From an uncultured Gemmatimonadales bacterium (GTDB taxonomy: Bacteria > Gemmatimonadota > Gemmatimonadetes > Gemmatimonadales > GWC2-71-9): a stretch of 64,000 nucleotides of DNA. The stretch covers positions 768,001 to 832,000 of the forward strand of contig CAWHFW010000002.1 of the NCBI GenBank assembly GCA_963828735.1, written 5' to 3'. Shown here piece by piece: positions 40,139 to 64,000 of this stretch (the first letter of the stretch is position 1; every line of letters starts with the position of its first letter). The translations under genes were made by a program, and so were the position numbers. The notes beneath the pieces were generated by a model. The model searched no databases, had not been told where the DNA came from, and saw only the letters and a list, made by a program, of their open reading frames with translations.

Positions 40139-40164
40139 GGAACCAATCCCGCTCCCACGGCATT
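40139..40164 (+). promoter_or_regulatory. ECF-sigma-like promoter, copy 1
   Basis: GGAACC-AATCCCGCTCCCACGG-CATT, 49 nt before ATG 40214. Confidence 0.75.
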
Positions 40165-40213
40165 AGAGCCCGCGTCACCGGGCACCCATTCTCCACGCCG
40201 AGGAGCGACACCC

Positions 40214-40708
40214 ATGAGACTTTCTCCCTCCATTCTCACCGCCGCGGCGCTCCTGGCCCTGGGCGGTCGAGCCCATGCGCAGACTACCGAGACGAAATCG
40301 ACGCTCACGCTCGAGGGCGCGAAGAGCATCGCGGCCGCCGCATCTGCCGAAGCGAAGAAAGGCAACGAAGGCGCCTCTATCGCCATCGTCGATGACGGCG
40401 GCAACCTGATGTACCTCGAGCGGTTGCAGCCCACCTTTCCGATGGGCGCCACGATCTCCACCGAAAAAGCTCGCACGGCCGCTCTGTTCCAGAAGCCGAC
40501 CAAGATCCTCGAGGACGCCATCGTCGGCGGCCGGACGCCGTTGCTGAACGTCTGGTCCGCGCCGCTCAACGGCGGCGAGCCGATCGTCGTGAACGGACAG
40601 GTCGTCGGCGCCATCGGGGTGAGCGGAGCCTCGAGCGCCGCGCGTGATGCCGTCATCGCCCTGGCCGGCGCAGCCGCGCTCGGTGGCAAGACCAGCGCGT
40701 CCAGGTGA
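40214..40708 (+). CDS. Exported GlcG/HbpS-like haem-binding protein
   Basis: Signal peptide (AHA); SIAIVDDGGNL, KARTAA, GGEPIVVNGQVVGAIGVSG. Confidence 0.9.
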   Translation: MRLSPSILTAAALLALGGRAHAQTTETKSTLTLEGAKSIAAAASAEAKKGNEGASIAIVDDGGNLMYLERLQPTFPMGATISTEKARTAALFQKPTKILEDAIVGGRTPLLNVWSAPLNGGEPIVVNGQVVGAIGVSGASSAARDAVIALAGAAALGGKTSASR

Positions 40709-40719
40709 GGAGCCCTCCG

Positions 40720-41199
40720 ATGCGATACCGGAACTGGCTTGCCGCCGCCCTGGCGACCCTGCCCGTCGTGGCTGGCGCGCAAACGACCGCCCAGGTGAGC
40801 GACGCGGCCGTGACCTATCTCCCCGCCGACCAGGTGAAGACCGCGTTCGCGAAGGGCGTGCCGATGGTCGAGGTGGGCGACTACAAGATCCACGCGAGCC
40901 GGCGCGAAGCCCCCGGCATGGCGGAGATCCACACTCGCGATACCGATATCGCGTACATCATCCAGGGGTCGGCGACGCTCGTCACCGGCGGCACCGCCGT
41001 CGGCGTCAAGGCGATCGGCCCGGAGGAGCTGCGTGGCACCGCCATCGAGGGCGGATCGACGCGCCAGCTCGAGGTAGGCGACGTCGTCGTCATCCCGAAC
41101 GGTACCCCGCACTGGTTCAAGAGCGTGCGTGGGCCCTTGCTGTACTACGTCGTGAAGGTGCGCCAGGCCGCCCGCGAGACGGCAACGGGGGCCATGTGA
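40720..41199 (+). CDS. Exported cupin-fold protein
   Basis: Signal peptide; AEIHTRDTDIAYIIQG and GDVVVIPNGTPHWF. Confidence 0.85.
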   Translation: MRYRNWLAAALATLPVVAGAQTTAQVSDAAVTYLPADQVKTAFAKGVPMVEVGDYKIHASRREAPGMAEIHTRDTDIAYIIQGSATLVTGGTAVGVKAIGPEELRGTAIEGGSTRQLEVGDVVVIPNGTPHWFKSVRGPLLYYVVKVRQAARETATGAM

Positions 41200-42851
41200 G
41201 CCGCCGTGCGCTCGCGCCGCTCGCGGCCGGCATCATTGCGGCCACGCTGCCGCCCATCGCCGCCGGGCCGGTCCTGGCACAGGCCACGGTCGATCTTCCG
41301 GTCGTCCTTCCCTCGGCGGTCATCGACCTGCGGACAACGGACGGGGCGGCGCTGGCGGGGGCGCGGTGGCGCTACAGCGACGCGAAGGTCGTGGAGGTGG
41401 ATCACCGCGGCGCCGGGGCGGATCTCCGTGCGTCCGGCCCGCCGAACCGCACCAATGACATCACCCCGCACGCCGGCCCGGCGGATTTCGACGATTCCGG
41501 CTGGGAGGTCATCCCGCCCGAGGGCCTCGAGGCGCGCCGCGGGCACGGTCGCCTCGCGTTCAACTGGTACCGAACCAAGGTGACGTTGCCCGCGAAGGTG
41601 GCCGGCTTCGACGTCGCCGGCGCCACGGTGCTCTTCGAGCTGGTCGTGGACGACTACGCGGAGGTCTGGGTTGACGGGCAGCTCCCGCTCGTGCTCGGCC
41701 AGACCGGCGGCCAGCTCGTGAAGGGCTTCAACGCGCCGAACCGCGTCGTCCTCACGCGCGACGCGCGGCCCGGGCAGACGATCCAGCTCGCCGTGTTCGG
41801 GATCAACGGCCCCGTGTCCAATCCCCCAGCCAACTTCATCTGGATCCGCTCGGCGACGCTCGACTTCTACAGCAGGGGTGCAGTCGGCCCCGCGCAGCCC
41901 ACGACTGGGAAGGTCGTGCGGCTCGATCCCCGCGTCGACGGGATCGTGCCCAGGGGTGCGAAGATCGAGAAGGTCGCCGGAGGGTTCCAGTTCATCGAAG
42001 GCCCGGTGTGGCACCCGGACGGCTACCTGCTCTTCAGCGATCCCAACGCGAACACGATCTACCGCTGGACGCCCGATGGCGCGGTCTCGGTCTACCGCTC
42101 CAAGAGCGGCTACACCGGCCCCGACATCGGCCAGTACCACCAGCCCGGCTCCAACGGCCTCACGCTCGACCCGGACGGGCTCCTCACGATCGACGAGCAC
42201 GGCAACCGCCGCGTGACACGGCTCGAGCGAACCGGCAAGATCACGGTCCTCGCCGACCGCTACGACGGCAAGCGGCTCAACAGCCCGAACGACCTCGTGT
42301 ATCGCTCCGATGGGACGCTCTATTTCACCGATCCGCCGTTCGGCCTCCCCAAGGCGTTCGACGACCCGCGGAAGGAGCTCCCGTTCAGCGGCGTGTACAT
42401 GGTGCGAGACGGGCAGGTGAGGCTTCTCACGAAGGAGCTGCGTGGGCCCAATGGCATCGCTCTGTCGCCGGACGAGCGCTACCTGTACGTGGACAACTGG
42501 GACCTGGAGCACAAGGTGCTCATGCGCTACGACGTCGCCGGCGACGGGAGCATCTCGAACGGGCGGGTGTTCCACGATTTCACGGGGCTCGCGGAGCCCG
42601 TCGCGCTCGACGGCATCAAGGTGGACCAGCGCGGCAACGTCTACATCTCGGCGCCGGGCGGGATCTGGATCCTCTCGCCGGAGGGCGAGGCCCTCGGTCG
42701 GCTCGAGCCTCCCGAGCACGACGCGAACTTCGCCTGGGGTGATGCGGACGGACGAGCGTTATACCTGACGGCGAGCACGGGACTCTATCGCATCCGGTTG
42801 AGTGTGCCGGGCGTGAGACCGGGCATGGCGCAGCAGTCAGCGGCAAGGTAA
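41196..42851 (+). CDS. SMP-30/gluconolactonase family protein with an N-terminal carbohydrate-binding-like domain
   Basis: GTGA overlap; SRR (Tat-like) signal; WYRTKV..VDDYAEVWVDG domain; FIEGPVW, SNGL, NSPNDL, PNGIALSPD, DGIKVD. Confidence 0.9.
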   Translation: MSRRALAPLAAGIIAATLPPIAAGPVLAQATVDLPVVLPSAVIDLRTTDGAALAGARWRYSDAKVVEVDHRGAGADLRASGPPNRTNDITPHAGPADFDDSGWEVIPPEGLEARRGHGRLAFNWYRTKVTLPAKVAGFDVAGATVLFELVVDDYAEVWVDGQLPLVLGQTGGQLVKGFNAPNRVVLTRDARPGQTIQLAVFGINGPVSNPPANFIWIRSATLDFYSRGAVGPAQPTTGKVVRLDPRVDGIVPRGAKIEKVAGGFQFIEGPVWHPDGYLLFSDPNANTIYRWTPDGAVSVYRSKSGYTGPDIGQYHQPGSNGLTLDPDGLLTIDEHGNRRVTRLERTGKITVLADRYDGKRLNSPNDLVYRSDGTLYFTDPPFGLPKAFDDPRKELPFSGVYMVRDGQVRLLTKELRGPNGIALSPDERYLYVDNWDLEHKVLMRYDVAGDGSISNGRVFHDFTGLAEPVALDGIKVDQRGNVYISAPGGIWILSPEGEALGRLEPPEHDANFAWGDADGRALYLTASTGLYRIRLSVPGVRPGMAQQSAAR

Positions 42852-42987
42852 GGCGGGCGGACGTTCAAGCAGTCAGGCCGGTAAGGTGCGCACCGACGGA
42901 ACGTCGTTTTGTTCGGAGCGAGGGGTCTTTCCGCCAGCTCGAATCTGGTGGACAGGATCCCTCGCTTTACCCGAGGTCACACCGCGC

Positions 42988-44517
42988 TCACCCTCGCCCG
43001 ACGTGCTCCATCTTCCGCTCCGCCTCGAGGCTCGCCTTGTCCCTGCCGACCGTCACCACCGCCAGCACCTGCTTCCCACGGAGATACCTGAGCGTACAGT
43101 CCTTGGCCGACACGTCCCCGTCGACGTCGATTCGATCCCACCGCTCGGCGTGCCCACTGTAATTGATGGCCACCGAGTAATGCTGGCTCCAGAAGAACGG
43201 AACCGCGTCAAAATGATCGGCCGGTCCGAGGATGCTTCGGGCGGCGGCCTGACCCTGGCGCTGCGCCAGCACCCAGTGCTCCACCCGAATCCGTCCGCCG
43301 GTGTGCGGATCCGGCCACCGGGCGATGTCGCCCGCGGCGTAGATGCCCGGTGCGCTGGTCTCCAGCCGTTCGTCCACGAGCACGCCGCGGTCGAGCGCCA
43401 GACCCGCCTCGTCCGCCAGCCCGACGTTGGGCCGCACTCCGATACCCGCCACCAGGAGGTCGGCGGGGAGGGACTGGCCATCATCCAGGACCACCAGGCC
43501 ATCCGCGATCCTGACCGCCCTGCGACCGAGGTGGAAGACCACACCCTGCTCCTCGTGGATCTGCCGGATCATGTCGCCGAGCGCCGGGCCGAGCACCCGT
43601 TCCAGCGGCCGCGCGTCCGGGGCGACGACCCGGACATCCATCTTTCGCGCCCGGAGCGAGGCCGCCACCTCGAGACCGATGAAGCTCGCGCCGAGCACGA
43701 CCGCGCGGCCGCCTTCGCGCGCGGCACCGACGATCCGGCGGCTGTCGGCCAGCGAGCGGAGATAGTGCACCCGAGGCGTGCCGGCCTCGAGGTCGGGCTC
43801 GAGATGCACGGGACTGGCCCCGGTGGCGAGCAGCAGCGCGCCGTAGCTAAGGTCGGTTCCATCGTCGAGGCGCACGCGACGGCCGCGCGGGTCGAGGGAG
43901 GCGACGCGGGGTCCGCGCCGCAGCTGGATCCCCCGCTGCTGGTAGAAGTCGGGTGGATGCAGTGGGATCCATTCTTCGGGCGCGTTCCCCGCCAGGTAGT
44001 CCTTGGACAGGTTGGGCCGATCGTAGGGCGCGTCCCCATCCGGATCGACGATCGTCACGGGCCCCTCGTACCCCTCGCGTCGAAGGGTTTCCGCGGCGCA
44101 CTCACCGGCAGCCCCACCGCCGACGATGACGACCGACTCGGGAGCCTTGGCGCGCCGGCTCGGCCGCGGCGGCGGCTGGCGCTTGGCGCCGACCCTGACC
44201 ATTCCGTCGCTGACGGCGACGTCCCAGCACGACAGATCGTTGAGCGCGGGCGGTCGGAGCGGTTGGCCCGTGCGCAAGCTGAAACAGCCGTGGTGCCAGG
44301 GACACCGGACGGTGTCGCCCACCATCAATCCCTCCGCCAACGGCCCGCCGTAGTGACTGCAGGTGGCTCCGATCGCGAACCACTCGTCGCCCCGGTGGGC
44401 CAGCAGCACGGCTTCCTCTCCCACACGCCCCGCGATCATTCCACCGTCCGCCACGTCCGTCGTCGGAATGCCGGCCTGCAGGTCCGGGCCTTCCGGTGCT
44501 TCCTGTCCCGATGCCAT
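42988..44517 (-). CDS. Rieske [2Fe-2S] plus FAD/NAD(P)-dependent ferredoxin reductase fusion
   Basis: GGAGG RBS; CSHYGG...CPWH, GGGAAG, YDRPNLSK, GASFIGLE, YAAGD. Confidence 0.92.
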   Translation of the reverse strand: MASGQEAPEGPDLQAGIPTTDVADGGMIAGRVGEEAVLLAHRGDEWFAIGATCSHYGGPLAEGLMVGDTVRCPWHHGCFSLRTGQPLRPPALNDLSCWDVAVSDGMVRVGAKRQPPPRPSRRAKAPESVVIVGGGAAGECAAETLRREGYEGPVTIVDPDGDAPYDRPNLSKDYLAGNAPEEWIPLHPPDFYQQRGIQLRRGPRVASLDPRGRRVRLDDGTDLSYGALLLATGASPVHLEPDLEAGTPRVHYLRSLADSRRIVGAAREGGRAVVLGASFIGLEVAASLRARKMDVRVVAPDARPLERVLGPALGDMIRQIHEEQGVVFHLGRRAVRIADGLVVLDDGQSLPADLLVAGIGVRPNVGLADEAGLALDRGVLVDERLETSAPGIYAAGDIARWPDPHTGGRIRVEHWVLAQRQGQAAARSILGPADHFDAVPFFWSQHYSVAINYSGHAERWDRIDVDGDVSAKDCTLRYLRGKQVLAVVTVGRDKASLEAERKMEHVGRG

Positions 44518-44570
44518 TCCGTTGCCCTCCGCTTTCGGTCCGTCGTAGGTACCCCACGGTGGGGCGCCCT

Positions 44571-44596
44571 GGAACCTTTTCAGACCGGCCGGCATT
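44571..44596 (+). promoter_or_regulatory. ECF-sigma-like promoter, copy 2
   Basis: GGAACC-TTTTCAGACCGGCCGG-CATT upstream of the small ORF/zf-HC2 pair. Confidence 0.7.
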
Positions 44597-44640
44597 CCAT
44601 TCCCCGGGTGCGAGCGTCCGGCTTACTTTTTCGAGGTGCC

Positions 44641-44943
44641 GTGGCAACATCATTTCCCGCAGCCGCCCGGTGGGCGGCGGTTTCCCTCGTGGACGTAGAG
44701 GTCGCCATCCAGACAGACCGGCGGGAGGCTCCACTGGCCGGGGAGCCCACGCTCATCCGGCTCCTTCGCCGGCCCGGGTGGACACCTGCGCAGGAGCCGG
44801 GTGGGACATTCGAGAAACTGCCCCGTCTGGACGATACACCGGACCTGTACCTTCGCGCCCGCTCCGGAAATCTCCGGCATGTCGCTCCGGACGACGAACC
44901 GGACGACGGCATCGTACCGGCGAACAAGGAGGCGGCGACATGA
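44641..44943 (+). pseudogene. Short ORF in the position expected for an ECF sigma gene; possible sigma remnant
   Basis: Lies between the ECF promoter and the anti-sigma gene; its TGA overlaps the anti-sigma ATG (ATGA); no intact sigma2/sigma4 regions; start uncertain. Confidence 0.35.
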
Positions 44944-45218
44944 ACCGGCGTCTGGACCGTACGACGTGCGAGGAGACCTTCCGTCGCCTCGATGATTACC
45001 TCGACCGACAGTTGAGCGCGGAGGACACGCGTCTCATCGAGGAGCACCTCCAGCACTGTGCGGCGTGCAGCCAGGAGTTCGTGTTCGAGGCCGGGGTGAT
45101 CCGGGGGGTGCGACACAAGCTCAGCAGGCTGGACGCCCCGCCCACCCTGCTCGACCGGATCTCCAAGGAGATCGCGCGCGCGGCTCGGGAGGAGGATACG
45201 CCCAAGGAATCCCCCTGA
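44940..45218 (+). CDS. zf-HC2 (ZAS, RsrA-like) anti-sigma factor
   Basis: AAGGAGG RBS; TCEETFRRLDDYLD...HLQHCAAC (Hx3Cx2C)...APPTLLDRI. Confidence 0.88.
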   Translation: MNRRLDRTTCEETFRRLDDYLDRQLSAEDTRLIEEHLQHCAACSQEFVFEAGVIRGVRHKLSRLDAPPTLLDRISKEIARAAREEDTPKESP

Positions 45219-45245
45219 GCCGAGCGCAAGTCTCGGCGGGGGCGG

Positions 45246-45530
45246 TCAGCGACCCAGCAGGTCGTGGAGCCCGCGCATCACGATGTAGACCAGCGGCGCG
45301 GCCAGCAGCACGCGCGGCATCAGCGCCCGAGCGCGCAGACCGTGAACCAATCGAGCGTGTGTGGCGGCGGTGAGCGTGGTGCCGACCGCGAGGGCCACGT
45401 TGGCGGCCGTCGCGGCGCTCACCCGTGACGCGAGCAGCTGACCCACGAGGAGGCCGGAGAGACTGCCCACGAAGACGGCGGCCAGGAAGCCGCCGAGCTC
45501 GCTCGCGAGAGGATGTCGCGGCGGGGTCAT
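45246..45530 (-). CDS. Small hypothetical membrane protein (about 3 TM)
   Basis: Three hydrophobic segments; ATGA overlap with the upstream ORF. Confidence 0.65.
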   Translation of the reverse strand: MTPPRHPLASELGGFLAAVFVGSLSGLLVGQLLASRVSAATAANVALAVGTTLTAATHARLVHGLRARALMPRVLLAAPLVYIVMRGLHDLLGR

Positions 45531-45796
45531 CGATCTTCTCGCCGTGGCCTCACCGGGAGCGTCGAGGTCGACGCCGCCCCGCCACGAAATTCGAAGTGCG
45601 CGTCCACCAGCATCCTCCCGGCGGGCCGGAGATCGTCACCGCGAAGGAGTCGCCCGGCGAGCACGCGGTCGGCCGTGATGGCGGCAGACTCCCACTCTCC
45701 GGCGACGAGCCCCGGATAGAGGTGTCGATGCTCGGGTCGAAGGCGGGCTTCCCGACGATCGGCCGCCCGCCCCTGAAGAGGCAGGGCGGCCGCCAT
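45527..45796 (-). CDS. Small hypothetical protein (alternative GTG start 45826)
   Basis: REARLRPEHRHLYPGL..GEW...HFEFRGG; co-oriented and coupled to the next gene. Confidence 0.55.
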   Translation of the reverse strand: MAAALPLQGRAADRREARLRPEHRHLYPGLVAGEWESAAITADRVLAGRLLRGDDLRPAGRMLVDAHFEFRGGAASTSTLPVRPRREDR

Positions 45797-45831
45797 CCGC
45801 CCCACGCTGGTCGTCACGGCCGGCACGACGG

Positions 45832-47019
45832 TCAGTCCCCCGCCACTTCGCAGTAGACTTTGATGGCTCCCTTGGCGGAGGTGAGCGTATGGAGCAGGAG
45901 CTGCCAGTTCTCCAGGCCGCGCACCGGATGCGTCAGCAGGCGACGGAGCCACCCCGGATATTCGGCCTCGGCCTGCGCGAGGTCCTTGACGCCGGTCTCG
46001 AAATACTCGCGATTCGCATTGACCGTGCCGACCATCACCTTGTTGCCCAGCACGAACTCCAGATTGATCCGATCGGCGGGGACCCGGATGCAGTTGTCGC
46101 CGCCGGTGACGCTGGACAGCACGAGGACGCCGTTCTTGGCCAGGACCCGCATGCTCGCGAACACGACCACGGACGACCCGGTGGCCTCGAAGATGATGTC
46201 GAACGGCCCGTACCGGACCCCACCCTCCATGATCGTCCTCGCCTCCGTCGACTCGTAACGCGCGCCGATCGCCTCGACCAGATCCGAGTTGAGGTAGGGC
46301 CGGGCGGTCCGCCCGAACACGGTCACCTCGAGGCCACGGAGCCGGAGCGCCAGCGCCGCCAGCAGCCCGATGGTCCCGGCCCCCATCACCGCGGCCTTGC
46401 GCGGATGCCAGACCCGGAGCCGGCGCTGGACCTCGTACGCCTGGGCGATCCCCTTCTCCACGACCGTGGTCGGCTCGAGCAGCACGCCGACCTCCTTCAG
46501 ACCCTTGGGGACCTTGACGATGTACTCGGGATCGTCGACGTAGTACTCGGTGAGGTACCCGTGGCGCAGGTTGATCCCGCGCTCGTAGTACACGTCATCG
46601 GTTGTCATGTCGTAGGTGCCGATCGTATCGTAGATGCTCGACCCCGGCCGACGCACCGTGGCCACCACGTAGTCGCCCGGGGCGAGTTCCGTGACGTTCG
46701 GACCCACGGCTTCTACCCGGCCGAAGCTCTCGTGTCCCGTCACGAGAAAGTCGTAGCCCGGAGGCGCCGCGCCGTACTCCGCCGCGTTGATTTCCTTGTC
46801 CGTACCGTCGACTCCGACCTTCAGCACCTTCACGAGCACGCCGCGCCCGTTCGGCACCTCGTCCAGGGATGGCCTGGCCAGCTGCGCCAGGTGCATCGAG
46901 TTCGGTGTGCCGGGAAAGACGGCGATCGCCTTCATCATCGTCGCGTCCGCCTTCGTTGCGGCCGCCGGCGCGCGGACCGGGGTCGTGAGGGCGGCGCCGC
47001 CTCGGTCACTGCTGGGCAT
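45832..47019 (-). CDS. Zn-dependent MDR glucose 1-dehydrogenase (archaeal-type)
   Basis: AAGGAG RBS; MKAIAV, GVDGTD, GHE, VRRP, ERGI, GAGTIG, GTVNA. Confidence 0.85.
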
Positions 47020-48181
47020 GAGCGACTCCTTCGTGCTCGACGAGTTGGACGGCGTGGCCGTCGGGATCGCGGACCAGGAGCCCGCGCGAGAATCCAAGGG
47101 TGGTATCCGGCAGCGCGATCGCCGACGACGAGAGCAGGCGAAAGCTGCCGCGGCGCACCGCCGCCGCCGCCGCGTCCGCGTCGGGCACCAGCACGGTGGT
47201 CTGCCAGTGCACTAGGTCGTTGGGCCGCTCGTCGGCCGGGTAGGGCCGGCCGTCGCGCGGGGCGTCGTACTCGAGGAACTCGATGCCGGGGCCCGAGGGC
47301 GCCCGGAGGCTGGTAATGTGGAGGCGAGCTCCTTTCACGTTGTTCAAGTGCTCCTGCTCGGTGCCCGCATTCATGCTCTCACCCGCGACGCGGAAGCCGA
47401 GCACGTCGCGATAGAACGCCAGGCTCGCCCGGGTATCGGCGACGACGATCGCGGTGTGATCGATACCGAGGAACAGGCGATTCGTCGCGGCGTGCCACTT
47501 GGGGTCGCCCTTGTCCGGCGGGAACTGGAGGGCCTCGAGCGGATGGCCGTCCGGGTCGCGAAAGTAGAACGCCCGGATGCCGGCGGCGTTCGGAATGGTC
47601 TCGGGCAGCCGCTGCGGACCGGTCGACGCGTAGCGCACCTTGTACCGGCGGAGACGCGCATAGGCGCTGTCCATGTCGCGGACGATGATGGCCACGTGCT
47701 GGAACCACCGGTCGTTGCTCCGACTGTCGAGCGGTGCCGGCCGGCCAGACGAGGCGATGTACTGCGTGAGCTGCAGGGACTCGTCACCGAGGGCGAGCCG
47801 GACGACGCGGAGGCGCACGCCGAAGACGCCGGTCAGCTCCTCGTACGGAGCGCCGGCGACCTCGTCGTCGCTCACCTTGGTGAAGTCGAGGACCCGGGTG
47901 TAGAACGCGACCGAGCTGTCCATGTCCGACACCGTCAGTCCGATCATGGCGACGGCCTGCGCGCGGCCGGCCGGGTCGCCCGACGGCCCCGACGCATTGC
48001 GCGCCGTGACGCCGTGGCCGGCCCACGGTTGAGGCGACTGGGCCGGCAACCTGGAGGCCATGAGGGCCAGGACGATCGTCCACAGGATCGTTGCGAAGCC
48101 CAGCGCCGACGAATGCGTCCGGGCCCGGCCCGGCTCCGCGGAGCGGCCGCCGTAGGGCAGACTCGCGACAAATGCGTTCAT
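47006..48181 (-). CDS. Two-domain VOC/glyoxalase family protein with an N-terminal hydrophobic segment
   Basis: [55 protein letters not shown] overlap with the GMC gene. Confidence 0.88.
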
Positions 48182-49797
48182 GCCATTGCTCCCGCAGTCT
48201 CCCCTGCAACGATCCTCTCCCGCCTGCTCGCGCCCAGCCGCTCGAGGATCCGATCCCCCACGCGGAGCGCATTCGCCATGATCGTGAGCGCCGGGTTCAC
48301 CGCGCCGCTCGAGGGGAAGAAGCTTCCGTCGACTACGTACAGGTTGTCCACCTCGTGCGCCCGGCAGTTCACGTCGAGCGCGGACGTCTCGAGATCGCGA
48401 CCGAACCGGATGGTGCCATTCTGGTGCGCGACCCCGGCGAGAGGGATCCTCTGCCCGACGAAAAGGTTGCGTGCGAACAGTCCCTGGTGGCAGGCGTCCC
48501 CGTGAATGTCGCACCGCGTCTGCTGTTGCATCAGCCGCTCCAGCTTCTTGATGAGGCGCGCGTGGCCTTCCCCGTTATTGGGCGTGTAGGCGAGCACGAT
48601 GCGGCCGTCACGATCGAGGGTTACGCGGTTGTTCGGATCGGGCAGGTCCTCGGACGTCAGCCAGAAATCGAGCGAGTGCTTGCCCATGAGGTCCAGGGTC
48701 CACCCGGGAGCGATGGCGGGCGCGCCGGCCGAGAGGGTCACCCCGTCGAGCTTGCCAACGAAGGAGATGTGACCCATCGGGAACGGCCACTCCGGCGCAC
48801 CAAAGTAGAAGTCGTTGAGGGCGAGCGTCTTCTGGAAAATCGTCGGGTTGGCACAGCGGGAGAGCGCCATGAGCACCGAGTTCAGGTGCCCCATGTAGTG
48901 CCGGCCGACCACGTCCGACCCGTTCGCGAGCCCGCGCGGGTGCCGGTCGCTCGCCGAGCGGAGCAGCAGCGCCGCCGAATTGATGGCGCCGGCGGAGACC
49001 ACCACGATGTCGGCGGAATACTCCTCCCGGCGGCCGTCGCGCTCCACCACGACGCGCGTCACCTCGCGACCGGAGGCACTGGTCTCGAGCCGCGAGACGT
49101 ACGCCCGGGGGAGCAGGGTGACGTTGGGATGGCGGTCGAGCGTGGGATCTACGCACACCACCTGCGCGTCGGACTTGGCCTTGACCAGACAGGGATGGCC
49201 GTCGCACGTCGCACAGCGGATGCACGCGCTCCGGCCGCGATCGGCCTCGTTGAGCATGATGCCGAGTGGCACGTGGAAGGGCTTGCAGCCAAGCCGGGCA
49301 AAATCCTCGCTGAGCTGCCGGATCCGTGGCTCATGACTCACCGGGGGATGCAGGTACGGGGCACTCGTCGGCGGCTCGGTCGGGTCGACGCCCCGCTCGC
49401 CGTGCACCTGGTAGAGATGCTCAGCCTCGGTGTAGTAGGGCTCGAGCTCCTCATAGGTGATCGGCCACGCGGGCGATACACCACCATGATGCCGCAGCTC
49501 GCCGAAGTCTTCGCGCCGGAGCCGGAACAACGCCGCGCCGTAGAACTTCGTGTTGCCACCCACCCAGTAGTTCGTGTGCGGGTGAAGATCCTGCCCCGCT
49601 CTGTCCCGCCAGTGCTCCGCCGTCTGGTAGCGACCTTCGACGTTGACCGCTCGGGTGCTCCAGTTCTCGGGCTCGCGGGGCACGTAGTCGCCACGCTCGA
49701 GAAGGAGGATGCGCTTGCCGGAAGGCGCCAGACGGTGGAAGAGCGTGCCGCCGCCCGCGCCGGAGCCGATGATGATGACGTCGTAATGGATTGGCAT
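48178..49797 (-). CDS. GMC family flavin oxidoreductase
   Basis: YDVIIIGSGAGGG, VGGNTKFYGA, CIRCATCDGHPC, HQNGT, NLYVVDGSFFPS, NPALT. Confidence 0.93.
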   Translation of the reverse strand: MPIHYDVIIIGSGAGGGTLFHRLAPSGKRILLLERGDYVPREPENWSTRAVNVEGRYQTAEHWRDRAGQDLHPHTNYWVGGNTKFYGAALFRLRREDFGELRHHGGVSPAWPITYEELEPYYTEAEHLYQVHGERGVDPTEPPTSAPYLHPPVSHEPRIRQLSEDFARLGCKPFHVPLGIMLNEADRGRSACIRCATCDGHPCLVKAKSDAQVVCVDPTLDRHPNVTLLPRAYVSRLETSASGREVTRVVVERDGRREEYSADIVVVSAGAINSAALLLRSASDRHPRGLANGSDVVGRHYMGHLNSVLMALSRCANPTIFQKTLALNDFYFGAPEWPFPMGHISFVGKLDGVTLSAGAPAIAPGWTLDLMGKHSLDFWLTSEDLPDPNNRVTLDRDGRIVLAYTPNNGEGHARLIKKLERLMQQQTRCDIHGDACHQGLFARNLFVGQRIPLAGVAHQNGTIRFGRDLETSALDVNCRAHEVDNLYVVDGSFFPSSGAVNPALTIMANALRVGDRILERLGASRRERIVAGETAGAMA

Positions 49798-49831
49798 GGC
49801 GTGCTGCCTTCGCTGGAAGATGACTGCCACC

Positions 49832-49899
49832 GCCATCCTGAGCCCGAAGCGAGCGATCGGGAACGGCCGGGACGATCCTTCGCTTCGCTCGGGATTGGC
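49832..49899. repeat. REP-like imperfect intergenic palindrome
   Basis: Arms GCCATCCTGAGCCCGAAGCGAGCGATCG and CGATCCTTCGCTTCGCTCGGGATTGGC. Confidence 0.55.
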
Positions 49900-49917
49900 C
49901 CCGCGCTCAGCGCGAGG

Positions 49918-50646
49918 TCACTTGCTGCTCATCGCGTCCGTCGCCGGGGTGATCGTCATGCGGAGGACGCCGGCGATCGACGGATACGTGAATCCGTCAC
50001 GCACGTGGGCCACCGCCTGATGCTCGGCGACACCCGCGTCCGGCGTCTTCTGCCGCGGCCCCTGGTTCGGACCGAGGCCGGGCTCCTCGTTCACCTCGGT
50101 GCCGGCATCCCACAGGCTGAGCTGGGCCGTCATGTCGCCGCGCACGGGCTTGCCCGCGGCATCGAACAAGGCGACCGGCCGATCGTTCGAGTAGAACAGG
50201 TCGTTGGACTGGCCGAACATCCACGCCACCGAGAGCGACTGGCCCGGGGTGGCCTCGATCTCGAACGAGTAGCCGTTGCCCGGGGCGATCGGCCCGGCGT
50301 GAGTGGCACCGACCGACACCGCGGCGACCCCCAGGGTGACGATGCCGCCAGTGCCCGCGAGCGATTTGGCGAGGGGCTCGGGGTTGCCGGTCTCCGCGAG
50401 CGTCTCGAGGCCTTGGCCGGCATCGGGCTTCCCGCCGGTGAAGATCGGATTGACGCCCCCCGCGTGCACCGCCCAGAAGACCGGAGCCGATACGAACGGC
50501 GCCGTCTTCCCGTTCGAGAGCTTCAACGCTTCGCCCTTCGAGATGTTCTCCACCGTGATCGTGAATCGGGTGCCGGTTTGCGCCTCGGCGGCTTGGCCCA
50601 GGGCCAGCATGGCCGCCGACAGCGTCAGTGCGCGAGCGAACGACAT
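49918..50646 (-). CDS. Exported Spondin_N domain protein
   Basis: Signal peptide; GLETLAETG, MFGQSNDLF, LWDAGTEVNE. Confidence 0.85.
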   Translation of the reverse strand: MSFARALTLSAAMLALGQAAEAQTGTRFTITVENISKGEALKLSNGKTAPFVSAPVFWAVHAGGVNPIFTGGKPDAGQGLETLAETGNPEPLAKSLAGTGGIVTLGVAAVSVGATHAGPIAPGNGYSFEIEATPGQSLSVAWMFGQSNDLFYSNDRPVALFDAAGKPVRGDMTAQLSLWDAGTEVNEEPGLGPNQGPRQKTPDAGVAEHQAVAHVRDGFTYPSIAGVLRMTITPATDAMSSK

Positions 50647-50659
50647 GGAGGTCTCCTGG

Positions 50660-51169
50660 TCAGGACGCCGGGGAAAGCGGCGCCGTGGCGAAGTTCACGT
50701 TGAAGCGGTAGCACCAGATCGTGACCGCCCGATACTTGGTCAGGTCCAGGTCCGCCGGGATGTCGTAGTTCTGGTCGCCCTGGTTGCCCTTGAGCTTGCC
50801 CAGCTCGACGAACCCGGAGCGGGTGACGGATGCGTTGTCGCTCGCGTCGGCCGCCGCGACGAGATAGACCCGGACGTCGGGACCGTTCGATGTCGTGAAG
50901 TCCGTGAACCGGAGCACGCGGTGGCCGTTCCCCAGGTCGTGGACGGTGGCGGTGCCCCTGGTTTCATGCGCGACCGAGTGGAACTGGCCGGAGAGGAGCG
51001 AGGCCGGCACGGCCGGCGCGCCCATGGTCATCCCTTCCGAGACGTCCGCGCCGCTCGTCGTGAGAGTCTCATTCACCCTCTTGTTCACGAACAGGAGCTC
51101 CGGGCGGAACAGGTACCACCCGATCCCCCCGAGTACGACTACGGCGGCGATCCAGATGCGGCGTTTCAT
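50660..51169 (-). CDS. Membrane-anchored DM13 domain protein
   Basis: N-terminal TM; GQF..HETRG, NGPDVRVYL, LGKLKGNQGDQNY, VTIWCYRFNVNFA. Confidence 0.9.
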   Translation of the reverse strand: MKRRIWIAAVVVLGGIGWYLFRPELLFVNKRVNETLTTSGADVSEGMTMGAPAVPASLLSGQFHSVAHETRGTATVHDLGNGHRVLRFTDFTTSNGPDVRVYLVAAADASDNASVTRSGFVELGKLKGNQGDQNYDIPADLDLTKYRAVTIWCYRFNVNFATAPLSPAS

Positions 51170-51228
51170 CCTTCCTTCTCCTTCGGCTGACGGTGGCGAG
51201 CCTTCACGAGCTTGGCGATCGATGGCGG

Positions 51229-52071
51229 CTATAATGCCGCAGGCCCGCCGAAGGTTCCCCGCGTCGCGCGGTACTCGCAGTGGATGCAGCGCCGGGCGTT
51301 CTGATGGTGGAGCTTCGCGCAGAACAGTCGCCCGTTGCGCCGCAGGTGGAGCTCGGCCGCGCCCAGCATGCCCAGCAGCGGCGCGGCGAAGTAGATCCAG
51401 AGCGCGGTCCACTCCCCCGCCCACAGCGCCGAGCCGACCGTACGCGCCGGGTTCATGCTCATGCCGCTGAGCGGTGCCTCGACCGTGATGAACGCCGCCA
51501 CGAGCACGCCCGCGCAGGCACCGGTCAGCCATCCATGACGCGGGTCGCTCGAGACGATCAGCACGACGGTCATGAGGAGAAACGAGATCGCGACCTCCGC
51601 CGCGAATGCCGCACCCACCCCCAGCGGCCCGGGAACCGTCACGGCGTACCGCACCGACTCGTCGGCCACCAGCGGGCCCGCCATCAGCGTGGCGCCCAGC
51701 ACACCGAGCGCCGACCCGACGAACTGCGCGGCGATGTACGCGCCCGCATCCCATCCGCCGATCCGGCCGAGCCGGAGGAACGCCAGGGTGACCGCGGGGT
51801 TGTAGTGCGCCCCGGATTGCTTGCCCCAGCCGGAGTAGTTGAGCGCCACCGCCGTTCCACCCATGGCGATTCCCATGAGCAGTCGGCGTGTGAAGGGACT
51901 CGGCACCATGGCCGGGAGCGGACTCGCGGGATGAAACAGGAATACCGTGAAGAGGCACGCCGACAGCATGAACGTGCCCAGCAGCGCGGCCTCGATGGCG
52001 TACTCGGGCCAGTGCCGCGCCATCGCGCTCGAGGCGAGTGTGGTGGCGGCGGTGGCCGGGCGCGCACTCAC
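51229..52071 (-). CDS. MIP/aquaporin family channel
   Basis: SGAHYNPAVT and SMNPAR; about 6 TM; GTGA overlap with the upstream gene; C-terminal CAKLHH...CIHC. Confidence 0.92.
   Translation of the reverse strand: MSARPATAATTLASSAMARHWPEYAIEAALLGTFMLSACLFTVFLFHPASPLPAMVPSPFTRRLLMGIAMGGTAVALNYSGWGKQSGAHYNPAVTLAFLRLGRIGGWDAGAYIAAQFVGSALGVLGATLMAGPLVADESVRYAVTVPGPLGVGAAFAAEVAISFLLMTVVLIVSSDPRHGWLTGACAGVLVAAFITVEAPLSGMSMNPARTVGSALWAGEWTALWIYFAAPLLGMLGAAELHLRRNGRLFCAKLHHQNARRCIHCEYRATRGTFGGPAAL
51233..51258 (-). promoter_or_regulatory. ECF-sigma-like promoter, copy 3 (within the 3' end of the MIP gene)
   Basis: GGAACC-TTCGGCGGGCCTGCGG-CATT, 63 nt before the DM13 ATG. Confidence 0.72.
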
Positions 52072-54047
52072 GAGTGCACCAGCTCAAGCTCCGCGTGGGC
52101 GCCGGCCAGGACCTGCTGGTCGAGGCGGAGGAGCTCGCCCACGGACCACGCCTGGAACGGGCAGCCGCGCGGCGTGTGCGGCGGCTCGGCATCGGCGATC
52201 TCCGACACGTGCCCGATGCCCGCGCGCGAGAGATGCAGCTGCAGCGGCGTCAGGAAGCGGGACCGCGCCTCGGCGACCGAGTCGGCCGTGGCGCCCCGGA
52301 CCCGCACCCAGGCCTCGACGAACGGTCCAAGCAGCCAGGGCCAGACTGTGCCCTGATGATAGGCGCTGTCGCGCGAGCGAACGTCGCCCTCGTACCGGGG
52401 CCGATAGTCGTCCGCGTCCGCGGCGAGCGTTCGGAGACCGAGCGGGGTCCACAGCCGCCGCTCGACGGCATCCACGATCCGGCGGGCACGATCGCCCGTG
52501 ACGAGCGGGAACGGCAAGCCGCCGACAGCCAGGATCTGATTGGGCCGCATGGCCGCCTCCAGCGCTCCTGCCACGTGACCCGCGTCCACCACGTCGTAGA
52601 GGCAGCCCTCGGCCTCGTTCCAGAACCGGTCCGCAAAGGCGGCCAGGCCGCGCCTGCGAAGCGAGGCGTAGGCGCCGGTGAACGCCTCCGCGATCGTGAG
52701 CGCGTTGAGCCAGAGGGCCTGGATCTCGACCGGCTTCCCGATCCGGGGCGTCACCACCCAATCGCCCACCTTCGCGTCCATCCAGGTGAGTTGAACGCCG
52801 GGCTCACCCGAGGCCAGCAAGCCGTCCTCCATCGCCCGAATGCCGTACCGCGTGCCCCGGACATGCCCGTCGACAATGGCCCGCACCGCCTCGCCGAGGC
52901 GGGCGCGGTCTGCGGCGGCGGGCTTCCGGCCCTCGGCCTCGACGGCGCGCAGGTAGTCGTGCACCGCGACGACGTACCAGAGCGAGGCATCCACCGTGTT
53001 GTACTCTGGCCCGTCGCCCTGATCCACGAATCGGTTGGGCAGCATCCCTTCGGAGACGAGCCCGGCCCACTCGAGCAGGATGGACCGCGCGTCGCTCAGG
53101 CGCCCCGTCGCCAGACATAACCCGCGGAGCGAGATGAGCGTGTCGCGCCCCCAGTCGGTGAACCATGGATATCCTGCGACGATGGTCTTTCCCTGGCCTC
53201 GCCGGACCAGGTACGCGTCAGCCGCCCGATGCAGCGGCGTCGGGAATCGCGACCGGCGATTCCGCTCGGCGCGACGGAGGCGCGCGTACGCGGAGGCCGC
53301 CTCGGAGCCGGAAGGCACCGTGCCCGCGACGGAGAGCAGGAGGACCGCGTCGCCGTCCGCCAGATCCCAATGCAGCATTCCCGGCGCCGCCAGGTCCTCC
53401 ACGAAATCGAGACCCCGCGCACGCTCCTCGTCATACTGAAAGCCGCGATACCACTGGGGATCGGGCGCGTAGCTCCCGTTGGTGAGCGCCTCGACCGCCG
53501 GCACTCCCTGGTAGGGAGTCCAGGTCACCCGGCCGTGCCCGATGTCCGCGGCGAACCGGAAGGCGGGATTCTCGTGGTGCAGCGCGTGGGAATCGCGGCC
53601 GGAAAGGAACAGGCGCACGGCGAGAGGCACTGGGCCGCGCCGAGCGCTCGCCCGCCATCGCAGCGCCACGAGCGGTTGCCCCGACGGCACGAACAGCTCG
53701 TGCTCGATCCGCGTCCCGTCGGCGAGTCGCCAGGTCCACGTGGGCCACGGCTCCGCACCGAACGATTCGAGCGCGGCGCCCTCCGCCGGCGCGACGAGGC
53801 CCGGCGCGTATCGCTGCCGGCTCAGGTACTCGGGCGCGGCGGCGTGCCCCTCGGCCGTCGCGTGGGCCACCCAGGCGTCGAAGCCGTTCACCAGCACCAT
53901 CCGCCCGGTCGGCGGCGTGGTGGCCACCTGGAGGAGCGCGTGATAGCGCCGGGTGCGGAGCCCGCTCGTCGTTCCGGTCGCGAAGCCGCCCAGACCGTCG
54001 GCCTCCAGCCACTCGGTGGCCTCGTCCAGAGGATAGGGTTCCCTCAT
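52068..54047 (-). CDS. Amylo-alpha-1,6-glucosidase / glycogen debranching enzyme (GH133-like)
   Basis: [60 protein letters not shown]. Confidence 0.92.
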
Positions 54048-56773
54048 CGCGCGCTCCCCGTCAGCCGCCGGCTCTCCGTCGGCGCGACCGCGGACCCACC
54101 CGCGGCACGGCGGCGCGCGGTACCCTCGATGCAGCGGAGCACGAGCGACGTCCAGCCGGTCTGATGGCTCGCTCCGACGCCCCGGCCGGTATCGCCGTGG
54201 AAATATTCGTGGAACAGGATCAGGTCCTTCCAATGCGGATCCGTCGCATAGCGCTCCTCGTCGCCATGACACGGCCGATGCCCGGAGCGGTCGGCCAGGA
54301 ACGTGTTCGCCAGCCGCTGCTCCAGCTCGTGGGCCACCTCCTGCAGATTCATCAACCGTCCCGAGCCGACCGGGCACTCGATGGTGAGCCCTTCACCGTA
54401 GAAGTGGTGGTAGCGCTCCAGCGCCTCGAGCAGGAGATAGTTGATCGGAAACCAGATCGGGCCTCGCCAGTTCGAGTTTCCGCCGAACAAGCCCGTGTTG
54501 CCCTCCGCGGGGACATAGTCCACGCGGTGCACCATGCCCTGGACCTCGATCTCGTACGGCCGGTCGCGGTGTACCCTGGACACCGAGCGAATGCCGTGCG
54601 GTGACAGGAACTCGCTTTCGTCCAGGACATAGCGGAGCACTCGCTGCAGCCGCTCGCGAGTCGGGATGGCGAGCAGGCGCTTGAGGAGGTGGCCCTCGCC
54701 CATCCGAGGCTCCATGCACGCGATGCGGGCCGCCAGATCCGACCGGTTGGTGAGAAACCATGTCACGCGCTTCCGAAAGCCCTCGAGCCGCTCGAACTTC
54801 GCCTCATCGAGCACCTCCACGGCAATGAGCGGAATGATGCCCACGAGCGACCGGACCTTGAGCGCGCGGTGCTCGCCATCCACATGCAGCTGGTCGTAGT
54901 AGAACCCGTCGTCGTCGCTCCAGAGGCCGGAGCCGCCCAGGCTGTTGATCGCATCCGCGATGGCGACAAAATGCTCGAAGAATTTCGACGCCACATCCTC
55001 GTACGCCGGATCCTCGCTGGCCAGCTCGAGCGCCATCGACAGCATCGTGTTGCAGTAGAACGCCATCCAGGCCGTGCCGTCGGCTTGCTCCAGATGCCCG
55101 CCCGTGGGAAGCGGTCGCGACCGGTCGAACACACCGATGTTGTCCAGGCCGAGGAACCCGCCGGCGAACAGGTTCCGTCCCTCGGGATCCTTCCGGTTCA
55201 CCCACCAGGTGAAGTTGAGCAACAGCTTCTGGAACACGCGCTCGAGGAACAGCCGGTCACGCTGACCCTTGGGGCCCGTCATCTTGTAGACCCGCCAGCA
55301 GGCCCACGCGTGGACCGGCGGGTTCACGTCGTCGAAGGCGAATTCGTAGGCCGGGATCTGCCCGTTCGGGTGCATGTACCACTCGCGGAGCAGCAGCACG
55401 AGCTGCTCCTTGGCGAAGTGGGGGTCCACCTTGGCGAACGGAATCATGTGGAACGCCAGGTCCCAGGCGGCGAACCACGGATACTCCCACTTGTCGGGCA
55501 TCGAGATGACGTCGCGGTTGTAGACATGCGGCCACTCGGTGTTGCGACCTGCCAACCGACTCGACGGCGGCGGCGGCTGCGCCGGGTCGCCCTCGAGCCA
55601 ATCGCGCTGCACGTAGTGGTAGAACTGCTTGCTCCACAGCAGCCCGGCATACCCCTGACGGAGCACGCGCCGCTCGTCTTCGGTGGCGGCCGAGGGAACG
55701 CGCTCCGCGTAGAACTCGTCGGCCTCGGAGATCCGGTCCGCGAACACGCTGTCGAACGCGGGGCCAAATGCCGATCCGGCGGAATGCCGCGCCGCGCGGA
55801 GCCGGAGGCGAACCATGCGTTCACCACCCGCCGGCACGACCAGTCGATAGCGGAAGGCGGCCTTGGTTCCCTCCTCGGCGGGATTGATCGCCGCCGACTC
55901 ACCGTTCACGATCGCGCGGTGGAAGGCGTCCTTCACGTATGGCTGCGGGTTCGGCGCGCCGAACAGTCGGGAGGCGTTGGTCTCGTTTTCGGTGAAGAGC
56001 AGCGCCGGGAGGCCATCGGAAGCCGTGTCCGCCTCGAGCACGTAGCGGCCGAGGCCGGCGTGCTCCGCCGCGATGGCTGCCCCGCCTCCGGCCAAGCGCC
56101 GGAGCGTTGGTTTCGGCCAGTAGCCTTCGCCCGAGCGGCCCCAACTCCAGGTGTTCCGAAACCACACGGTCGGGAGCACGTCCAGGGTCGCAGGCTCCGG
56201 ACCGCGATTGGCCACGGTGATGCGGATGAGAATGTCCTCCTCATCGGCCTTGGCGTACTCGGCGATGACATCGAAATACCGGCCATCATCGAAGACTCCG
56301 GTGTCGAGCAGCTCGTATTCGGGCTCGGTCTTGCTCCGCTCGCGGTTGACGCGGACCAGCGGCTCGTAGGGGTACTCGGCCTGGGGGTACTTGTAGAGGC
56401 CTTTCAGGTAGGAGTGCGTCGGCGTAGAGTCGAGATAGTAGTAGAGCTCCTTCACGTCCTCGCCGTGGTTCCCCTCCGGCCCGGTGAGGCCGAAGAGCCG
56501 CTCCTTCAGGATGGGGTCGCGCCCGTTCCACAGCGCGAGCGCGAAGCAGAGACGACATTGCCGGTCGGTGATGCCGAGCAGACCGTCTTCGCCCCAGCGA
56601 TAGGTTCGGCTCCGCGATTGCTCGTGCGAGAAATAGTCCCAGACGCTGCCGTCGCCCGAGTAGTCCTCTCGCACCGTCCCCCACTGCCGCTCGGCGAGGT
56701 ATGGCCCCCAGCGCTTCCAGTTTCCCTCACGGCGCGCGTCCGATGCCAGGCGTCCCGCTTCGGCTCCCATCAT
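54044..56773 (-). CDS. MGH1-like GH63 family glucosidase
   Basis: [68 protein letters not shown]. Confidence 0.9.
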
Positions 56774-56784
56774 CGACCTCCGTC

Positions 56785-57048
56785 CTAGTACATGGTCTCG
56801 ATCATGAGACGGGTGTGGATGGCCCCGCGCAGCGCTGCCGGCAATGCGATGCGGCGCAGTCGGGCGCGGATGCCCTCGATCACCCTCCGCTCGAACCGGA
56901 CCGCCGAGGCGCAGGCGCGGCAACCAGCCAGGTGCCGCTCGACCCGCCGAAGATCCTCGCCCCTGAGCGCTCGATCCACATAGTCGTCGAGCCGACGTAC
57001 AACGTTCTCGCAGTCGTTGCGGTCCATCGAGTCGGGTGCTGCAGTCAT
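56785..57048 (-). CDS. Second zf-HC2 (ZAS, RsrA-like) anti-sigma factor
   Basis: [14 protein letters not shown]...HLAGCRAC (Hx3Cx2C)...LPAALRGAI; clear paralog of 44940-45218. Confidence 0.85.
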
Positions 57049-57106
57049 GCACGTGCCTTTCGCGGACTGGAACGGGCCGATGCCGCTGGAACCCCGACAC
57101 GGCCGA

Positions 57107-57132
57107 AACGCCGGCAAACCGGGATTGGTTCC
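57107..57132 (-). promoter_or_regulatory. ECF-sigma-like promoter, copy 4
   Basis: GGAACC-AATCCCGGTTTGCCGG-CGTT, 58 nt before ATG 57048. Confidence 0.78.
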
Positions 57133-63825: not shown

Positions 63826-64000
63826 CGGAGCTCCGTAGCTGTCCAGCGGGTCGAGTGACCGTCGTTCGCACGGGCTGATCGGCGCTGGCGATGCGGACGT
63901 CGGGTGGGCCGCCTTGGTCGGGTCGCGGTGCGGCTGAGGCTATTGGGGCGGAGGCCGGCCGACGGCTCCGCACTGCCCGCCGGGCCGTCACGCTCGGGGA

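Follow-up and report, generated by a model that had tools for sequence, protein, structure and literature searches.

In the genome of an uncultured Gemmatimonadales bacterium (assembly GCA_963828735.1, 4.78 Mb in 7 contigs; G000), four copies of one promoter-like sequence, GGAACC-N16-C(A/G)TT, lie within a 17-kb island of a 64,000-nucleotide stretch of contig CAWHFW010000002.1 (C2; positions 768,001 to 832,000), which we call the window and whose positions are used unless a contig is named. The locus raises the question of which sigma factor reads these sites and in response to what; a first-pass annotation had proposed a thiol or oxidative-stress regulon under an extracytoplasmic function (ECF) sigma factor. 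From sequence comparison, we think it reasonably probable that the sites are promoters of an accessory, SigH-like ECF clade driving genes predicted to act on glucans and glucosides and in glucose oxidation, together with two zinc anti-sigma factors (ZAS), and that in G000 a paralogue on contig C5 acts on them in trans.

Four promoter-like sites and their conservation

Exact matches lie at 40139 (+), 44571 (+), 51258 (-) and 57132 (-), as the first-pass annotation had listed them, against 0.19 expected in the window, and none of 100 shuffles reached four. Copy 1 (40139..40164, +; CATT followed by AGAG) stands ahead of the GlcG-cupin-lactonase genes; copy 2 (44571..44596, +; CATT) is, in relatives, the predicted autoregulatory promoter of the sigma-ZAS1 operon; copy 3 (51233..51258, -; CATT-ATAG) lies within the last codons of a MIP family channel gene, ahead of DM13-spondin-GMC-VOC-GDH (GDH, glucose 1-dehydrogenase); and copy 4 (57107..57132, -), the only one with CGTT, precedes ZAS2-GH63-GH133-MIP. 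All are oriented towards a start codon, at 49, 44, 63 and 58 nt for copies 1 to 4, and the gene labels of the downstream units agree with Pfam and NCBIfam. A fifth site, GGAACC-N16-CGTT at C2:833336 (window-equivalent 65336), is found 8 kb beyond copy 4, ahead of a GT4-GH57 operon, and is kept in the only relative that has this GT4.

Genome-wide, GGAACC-N16-CRTT occurs 18 times, and the scan-corrected chance that at least four of the 18 fall within one 17-kb stretch is about 2e-4, an optimistic figure because the pattern was picked after the sites were seen. When the spacer was varied from 8 to 25 within the island, spacer 16 gave four matches, spacer 21 gave one and all others none; the motif signal is local, because across the genome spacer 16 (23 matches) does not rise above spacers 9, 12, 15, 21 and 24 (23-31).

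The triplet CGG does precede the -10 box in all four copies (only five such sites exist in the genome, four of them in the island); it is not a part of the motif, as relatives carry TCG, CCG, TGG and others at that position. Copies 1 and 4 do share the 13 bases GGAACCAATCCCG (14 with the preceding T), and they are not the ends of the island, because the pentapeptide gene past copy 4 belongs to a conserved module and the fifth site lies 8 kb on. Nor are they terminal repeats of a mobile island: the shared bases are the -35 box and an A/T-rich start, the GC content is flat, the window holds no tRNA, and the left flank matches G022 and G049 and the right flank G009 and G049. A sigma-54 reading of the four sites was likewise rejected, GG-N10-GC, read off the sequence, being present only in copy 3. 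No RNA families were detected within 38000-60000, and predictions of sigma-70 promoters (2 vs 1.2 in shuffles) and terminators (9 vs 5.7 in shuffles) were uninformative.

As the first-pass annotation had suggested, G000 and its relatives were scanned with a matrix, which was built from 31 sites of relatives' islands after one misaligned site was dropped. Copies 1, 2 and 4 (28.8, 27.2 and 25.3) and copy 3 (24.5) take ranks 1-4 in G000, copy 1 leading, and the next best site scores 22.3, a ranking that is partly circular because the training sites were picked with a similar pattern. An unbiased set of relatives was therefore defined by the spondin protein, which was found in 19 of 60; three are cut at contig ends, leaving 16 usable, 12 of them outside the matrix training. 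In all 16, whose upstream DNA is intact, a CATT site lies 76-93 nt ahead of the DM13 gene, scoring 22.5-28, with antisense scores of at most 8.1. In regions chosen partly by the motif, a site stands directly ahead of 9/9 labelled GlcG genes, 11/13 DM13 genes and most GH63 genes. The strict 13-base pattern was found in 19 of 24 same-genus genomes, with 32 matches where the reversed control gave 3; among 16 genomes from other families, 3 carry it. Position -6, which lies outside the matrix, is A in 62/73 CATT sites vs 7/22 CGTT sites. The density of GCATT is 1.13/Mb in the 19 genomes with the sigma clade and 0.43/Mb in the 40 without it (controls, 0.61 and 0.57), and GCGTT is above control both with the clade (0.94/Mb) and without it (0.75/Mb); these densities come from kin genomes that are not independent, and some matches are coding. 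The island is syntenic across Gemmatimonadales, and by these comparisons the four sites are a real, conserved element.

Five other G000 sites score well (C5:1964432, C5:2317964, C5:2101589, C4:103733 and C5:1755060); they precede genes for a flavoprotein disulfide reductase, a PNPOx-like protein and an alpha/beta hydrolase with an apparently shifted frame, and two uncharacterised genes.

The sigma factor beside ZAS1 and its paralogue on C5

The annotation had pointed to an ECF sigma factor preceded by the same motif as the regulator to look for, and in relatives one is found. The slot ahead of ZAS1 (44940..45218, +; PF13490, Cys...HxxxCxxC, a soluble protein) holds a full ECF sigma gene in G009, G010, G012, G013, G018, G019, G020 and G022, where it lies behind the motif either directly or via an FMN-reductase operon. 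Records from Longimicrobium, Chthonomonas and Fimbriimonadaceae likewise show the motif ahead of clade sigmas, though not every clade member has it. At E<1e-90, the clade is present in 19 of 60 relatives, 17 of which also carry the spondin gene; all spondin-bearing genomes have an intact clade sigma except G001, in which sigma-2 is decayed, and G053, which is 72% complete. Across the phylum, at least 36 of 301 genomes, G000 included, carry the clade when 10 candidates are scored per genome. The closest titled relatives of the sigma are from uncultured Gemmatimonadales, with a top identity of 78%.

In G000, no intact sigma is present in the island. The 100-codon open reading frame (ORF) at 44641..44943 (+), which had been described simply as a small ORF, occupies the same slot and shows the same ATGA overlap with ZAS1 as the full sigma of relatives, and 11 of 14 residues of its linker are identical to the linker in G001. 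In a DNA alignment of which only the 3' match was used, the 5' part being misplaced, the linker appears joined to the C-terminal tail of the sigma, with sigma-2 unrecognisable and sigma-4 missing. The match alone is weak (E 5e-4 in a local test, about 0.5 genome-wide) and the ORF has no homologues, so the call of a remnant rests on position and motif. That the ORF encodes a conserved mini-protein was considered and rejected, a homologue being absent among 12 candidates of 55-175 aa. We regard the ORF as the likely deleted remnant of the island ECF sigma, which the annotation had missed. G001 appears intermediate, with an open-frame sigma still ahead of ZAS1 (L066:3553-4260) in which sigma-2 is decayed and sigma-4 intact; it belongs to one of three such clusters (P0121-P0123), which are candidate decoys or decay intermediates. 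The sigma beside ZAS1 has been lost or has decayed repeatedly, namely in G000, G001, G049 and in one of two modules in each of G018 and G067. Tandem ZAS-pentapeptide modules, one copy of which has no called sigma, were seen in L062 (G018), L265 (G057) and L268 (G067).

One might suppose that the whole island is decaying in G000 and that its promoters are unused ancestral leftovers. The remnant sigma fits this, as does the absence from G000 of the separate GH63 promoter and the FMN-reductase gene of relatives; however, the large island ORFs are all intact, the four sites are the best in the genome, and G000 retains an intact paralogue whose sigma-54 box is likewise intact, and we consider the supposition very improbable indeed.

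This paralogue, C5:1981611-1982210, is the sole intact clade member in G000. It has no adjacent ZAS and is preceded by a STAS-like ORF, for which there is no Pfam match, and by an 1802-aa kinase-AAA-GAF-sigma-54 activator (PF00158). At 8 of 9 loci (one base is off at the ninth), a -24/-12 box lies 50-67 nt ahead of the STAS-like ORF, against a background of 20 of 4148 G000 genes; the paralogue is thus likely, as predicted from the sequence, to be switched on by sigma-54. TTGGGA/TCCCAA-type inverted repeats lie upstream of the sigma-54 box in G000, G009 and G010 (G000:C5:1982476-1982640; L012:10477-10640) and are a candidate binding site of the activator. In G010 and G054, a CGTT site and a ZAS come straight after the paralogue, and in G046 the site does so at the contig end; in G054 the paralogue sits inside the island. 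G049 resembles G000 in having ZAS1 without a sigma, the paralogue only and strong CATT sites, and G049, G054 and G046, in which only the paralogue type was found, all retain strong CATT sites. A modelled complex of the paralogue with ZAS2 (56785..57048, -; PF13490, also soluble) scored 0.86 vs 0.09 for the best control, with at least 99% of contacts agreeing between runs and a partner pLDDT of 84, a score that may reflect likeness to solved sigma/ZAS pairs and does not discriminate which family member is bound; the mark used for such scores is reached by 51 of 78 solved pairs and 2 of 108 mismatched pairs. The model predicts that the paralogue binds ZAS2, and it is likely that the paralogue runs the island in trans and that ZAS2 is a feedback brake on this distant sigma.

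We therefore picture the circuit as follows. The clade would read GGAACC-N16-C(A/G)TT through the SigH contacts that it keeps for GG at -35 and TT at -10. In relatives, the island sigma would transcribe itself and ZAS1; in G000, where that sigma has probably decayed, the C5 paralogue would supply the activity, its gene being co-transcribed with the STAS-like ORF from a sigma-54 promoter on which the adjacent activator probably acts. Acting at copies 2 and 4, the paralogue would then raise the levels of ZAS1 and ZAS2, its inhibitors, and so close a negative feedback loop in trans. The predicted sigma-54-to-ECF cascade has a likeness in HrpL of Pseudomonas syringae, an ECF sigma driven by sigma-54 with an enhancer protein (PMC5263251): the -24/-12 box ahead of the sigma operon and, in G000, the adjacent PF00158 activator are both found here, the dependence being a prediction. 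Unlike HrpL, the present system has a single kinase-AAA-GAF-sigma-54 fusion as activator, a STAS-like ORF predicted to be co-transcribed, ZAS feedback and metabolic targets.

Recognition of the -11 base and the thiol question

The best PDB match of the sigma is SigH (E 7.5e-37), and TIGR02947 is the family that it fits best. The annotation's view of a SigH/SigR-like sigma paired with soluble ZAS proteins is borne out, and so is an ECF-promoter-like behaviour of the motif. The family scores are low, at 148-150 bits for TIGR02947 (cut-off 251.55) and 45.5 bits for ZAS1 and 38 for the other anti-sigma under TIGR03988 (cut-off 62.5); both are actinobacterial models, and a core sigma of G000 also falls short (155.7). 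In a quick tree, the 45-row clade (support 96) lies outside a group (91) in which the core sigma joins two actinobacterial SigH-like sigmas and sigmas of Bacteroidota/Ignavibacteria. The ECF classification supplement, in the portion available, lists Gemmatimonadetes under ECF19, 25, 41, 56 and 248, not ECF12.

SigR/RsrA of Streptomyces coelicolor and SigH/RshA (ECF12) are alike to the present system in sequence (the best match), in autoregulation, in a soluble ZAS at +1 (ZAS1 comes immediately after the sigma in relatives and after the remnant in G000), and in GGAA at -35 with equal spacing to TT. Their promoter is GGAAYR-N17-18-GTT with an essential G-11, whereas three of four -10 boxes here have ATT and position 6 of the -35 element is C in 4/4. 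The present system further differs in scoring below the family cut-offs, in having lost I91/N92, in lacking the RsrA redox signature and thioredoxin/chaperone targets, in its separate clade in the quick tree and in belonging to a phylum absent from the ECF12 phyla in the accessible part of the listing. Uncharacterised ECF270 and ECF271 also have a soluble ZAS at +1; their descriptions list other phyla, with a promoter reported as not conserved for ECF270 and a different motif for ECF271.

SigH requires G-11, which is read by I91 and N92, and its activity is fully lost without this base (PMC6411747). With the numbering mapped through the sigma-SigH PDB alignment, the I91/N92 pair is found in 0/42 clade sigmas, 9/9 core sigmas and 43/50 others; position 91 is Y or F in 31 of the 42, and the clade keeps the SigH T-10/T-9 residues and S182/R186. 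Because the pair demanding G-11 is lost, A at -11 would be tolerated, as in EcfG. Chain A of PDB 5uxx, which we take to be EcfG, has Y-S at the -11-reading positions, like the clade. The Y-S sigmas of other genera lie mostly beside CGTT sites (26 CGTT, 10 CATT, 3 CTTT), and because of this we weakened the notion that Y/F-S switches the -11 base to A: the residue change would relax rather than switch the base. CATT is a habit of this genus.

The EcfG promoter is GGAAC-N16/17-CGTT, with CATT tolerated (PMC7083833), and the rpoE5 promoter appears in a table of PMC6180224. Likeness to EcfG/RpoE2 (ECF15, alphaproteobacteria) extends from this promoter and the Y-S positions to a mixed protective output. 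In contrast to EcfG, the anti-sigma in the loci examined is a ZAS, not NepR, the spacer after GGAAC is fixed at 17, the phylum is different, and the sigma is nearer SigH than 5uxx. PhyR was not seen in the loci examined, no family search for it having been run. GH63 as a general EcfG target was considered and rejected, the site occurring in 0/4 alphaproteobacterial plasmid loci and being absent also from the locus of a Gemmatirosa plasmid.

The same clade and wiring could serve a different trigger, with the ZAS sensing thiols or oxidants in the manner of SigR/RsrA; under oxidative stress the island would then supply reducing power, by way of glucose to gluconate and NAD(P)H, together with redox proteins of the envelope. 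This is the annotation's proposal with the sigma put right, and we hold it possible, if doubtful. All 55 short ZAS collected have the N-terminal Cys and HxxxCxxC, which was the collecting pattern; the nearest named families are SigH/SigR and RsrA; and FMN reductase, Rieske reductase, HbpS-like, DM13, merA-like and msr genes lie in or beside some islands. The redox determinants of RsrA (acidic 39/40, hydrophobic 45, R/E 46; PMC3177212) were derived from actinomycetes and may not transfer; however, 0/4 occur in ZAS1 and 0/4 in ZAS2, and a hydrophobic residue at 45 is found in 2/44 island-type vs 8/10 core ZAS. ZAS1, with the motif HLQHCAACSQ, groups with the G001 ZAS1 (support 99) and is the orthologue of the anti-sigma beside the island sigma. 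No motif site stands ahead of trxA, trxB, clpB, clpC or dnaK, genes picked by short motifs, with scores of at most 5.6 under both matrices, and msr sites persist where the clade was not found. With three of four boxes reading ATT and the I91/N92 pair missing, the SigR/SigH-type thiol sensing of the first-pass annotation is not supported, and the thiol reading is weak. A third, orphan short ZAS (C5:1240496-1240783; L015), long-branched in the ZAS tree, was noticed in G000 close to a thioredoxin-like gene, with neither sigma nor motif beside it.

The near-universal core sigma (C5:1194073-1194886), which has a C-x-P-C-F ZAS and is found in most genus genomes, ranks second among the G000 matches to the clade profile; the motif precedes it in 0/10 core loci. 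Sites of the type (A/G)GAACC-N16-CGTT lie ahead of a cytochrome b and MsrP-like pair (score at least 14 in 12/29 loci, 0 antisense; more with AGAACC), and GGATCC-N16-CGTT lies ahead of msrA (at least 14 in 8/30, 0 antisense; visible in most). These msr sites are present also in genomes where the clade was not found. A matrix from msr-type sites selects two msrA genes, cytb-msrP, GT4, a TlpA-like redoxin and others in G000, not trxA, trxB, clpB or dnaK; at low thresholds it finds nearly as many antisense as sense sites across the genome. Because the CGTT variant persists where the island sigma was not found, these sites are likely read by the separate core sigma with its more RsrA-like partner, though another ECF may be the reader, and two overlapping regulons are likely, the clade's CATT/CGTT sites and the core sigma's CGTT msr sites. 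Individual examples are the site at G000:C5:2235290-2235315 (L014:7316, -), ahead of the cytochrome b561 and MsrP-like molybdoenzyme pair and kept in most relatives examined; the msrA(B) site GGATCC-N16-CGTT at G000:C5:399686 (L071:3687), a -35 variant kept across the genus (orthologues L110-L138); and AGAACC-N16-CGTT at a second msrA, C5:2139608-2140294.

Could the core sigma read all the sites, the island sigma being dispensable and therefore decayed here? Its rank in the clade profile and its presence in most genus genomes would allow this, CGTT sites exceed the control with or without the clade, and loss or decay of the sigma beside ZAS1 recurs. Yet the core sigmas keep I91/N92, G-11 is essential in SigH, and three of the four sites have A; intact clade sigmas accompany the spondin gene almost throughout (the exceptions being G001 and G053), and GCATT is at control level without the clade. 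We judge this quite unlikely and prefer the clade, through its C5 paralogue, as the reader of the sites.

Several observations weigh against that preference, besides the weak remnant match, the limits of the complex score and the CGTT-rich Y-S loci given above. The STAS-sigma pair occurs without an adjacent activator gene in G009, G049 and G181; the branch that places ZAS2 among the ZAS has weak support; some circularity attaches to the CATT excess, since sigma and sites arrive together with the island and the genomes are kin; the core sigma could read the two CGTT sites, copy 4 and the one before GT4; redox-type genes (FMN reductase, GMC, HbpS-like, DM13) lie in some island operons; a general-stress signal is an analogy; and the GH63 homologues on four alphaproteobacterial plasmids and the Gemmatirosa plasmid have no site. 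One CATT site, C2:144144, is kept also in genomes without the clade and overlaps a sigma-54-like box. This site (L076:2145; GGAAC...TGGCCCGCATT) is found in about 10 genomes, with or without the clade; its 3' half resembles a -24/-12 box, and it precedes a 152-aa unknown gene beside a glutamine-synthetase-like gene.

Predicted output and neighbouring genes

The targets are, as the annotation had it, predicted glucoside, glucan and sugar-oxidation enzymes together with exported proteins. The GT4, GH57 and GH133 families act in the building and trimming of alpha-glucans, and the MGH1-like members of GH63 cleave glucosyl or mannosyl glycerate; from these family roles and the GDH, whose best PDB matches are glucose 1-dehydrogenases (E 8e-55), the products of the island would free glucose and convert it to gluconate. 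The pool turned over by GT4, GH57, GH133 and GH63 would be an alpha-glucan or a glucoside, and oxidation of the glucose set free would fall to GDH, GMC and lactonase. In 18 loci of other genera and families, the neighbours include GH63 (8), pentapeptide (8), GH133 (7), GH57 (6) and GT4, MIP, cupin and lactonase (5 each); GH57 lies directly ahead of the sigma in 6 of the 18, and several distant loci have none of these neighbours. The locus of G332, a genome in 4 contigs and 100% complete, reads GMC-VOC-cupin-lactonase-GDH-Rieske-DM13-spondin-sigma-ZAS. The programme would resemble stationary-phase or general stress more than thiol repair, and by analogy a signal of that kind, rather than thiol oxidation, is probably the trigger.

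As judged from its genes and sites, the ECF/ZAS regulon resembles a hybrid of SigR (the ZAS brake), EcfG (the promoter) and HrpL (the sigma-54 input) and falls short of both the SigR and the EcfG type; its parts (ECF, ZAS, sigma-54 cascade) are all of known kinds. We found no description of it in the literature searched, in agreement with the annotation, subscription papers being mostly outside the search, and almost nothing on gene regulation in Gemmatimonadota, for which this analysis supplies a sigma clade, a promoter, anti-sigmas, a conserved target set and a predicted upstream activator. The system is a natural test of the structural rule for -11 recognition by I91/N92 and an example of a regulon that appears to have passed from an autoregulated sigma to a sigma-54-driven paralogue, and it ties a widespread GH63 subfamily without a solved relative to GT4/GH57/GH133 and glucose oxidation. 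A bolder synthesis, which we think rather improbable, sees a SigH-like ancestor as the source of a general stress response peculiar to Gemmatimonadota and to some neighbours from other phyla: loss of one base-reading pair would have made the sigma converge with EcfG in its promoter, CATT sites would insulate targets from the core thiol sigma, the kinase-GAF-sigma-54 activator would be a second input, and the copies with dead sigma-2 and intact sigma-4 (P0121-P0123), of which the remnant would be the end state, would act as PhyR-like decoys or promoter blockers.

The unit behind copy 1 comprises a GlcG/HbpS-like haem-binding protein (40214..40708, +; PF03928), a cupin (40720..41199, +; PF00190/PF07883) and an SMP-30/gluconolactonase with an extra N-terminal domain (41196..42851, +; PF08450). 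Divergent from copy 2 lies a gene for a Rieske + FAD oxidoreductase (42988..44517, -; PF00355/PF07992), which has no motif on its own strand and holds the same position in G001, G009, G022, G042 and G049. Copy 3 is followed by the DM13-domain protein (50660..51169, -; PF10517), the spondin-domain protein (49918..50646, -; NF038123, 122.6 bits, cut-off 40), the GMC oxidoreductase (48178..49797, -; PF05199/PF00732), a two-domain VOC/glyoxalase-fold protein (47006..48181, -; PF00903 twice) and the Zn-dependent GDH-like enzyme (45832..46938, -; PF16912). After ZAS2, copy 4 leads into the MGH1-like GH63 glucosidase (54044..56773, -; PF22422/PF03200), which has no PDB relative at E<=0.001, an amylo-alpha-1,6-glucosidase/debranching enzyme (GH133-like; 52068..54047, -; PF06202 + PF12439) and the MIP family channel (51229..52071, -; PF00230). 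Beyond copy 4, outwards from the island, are a pentapeptide-repeat protein (57340..58158, +; PF00805), in most relatives the convergent neighbour of sigma-ZAS, GH57 (62605..63825, -; PF03065), the second gene of its operon, and the 3' end of the GT4 glycosyltransferase (63818..64000, -; PF00534/PF08323), whose gene reaches window-equivalent 65236.

Convergence of the pentapeptide-repeat gene with sigma-ZAS is nearly constant, even in a Vulcanimicrobiota record (L185). Some 6 kb left of the island, 33842-34063 presumably encodes a CsbD-like small protein, judging by its appearance, with no strong motif site directly upstream. The frame of an M55 D-aminopeptidase (39276-40101) ends at 255 aa vs 274 aa in the G022 orthologue, possibly through a frameshift or a sequence error near 40040. 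In G022, DM13 and spondin are fused into a single ORF (L055:1787-2959).

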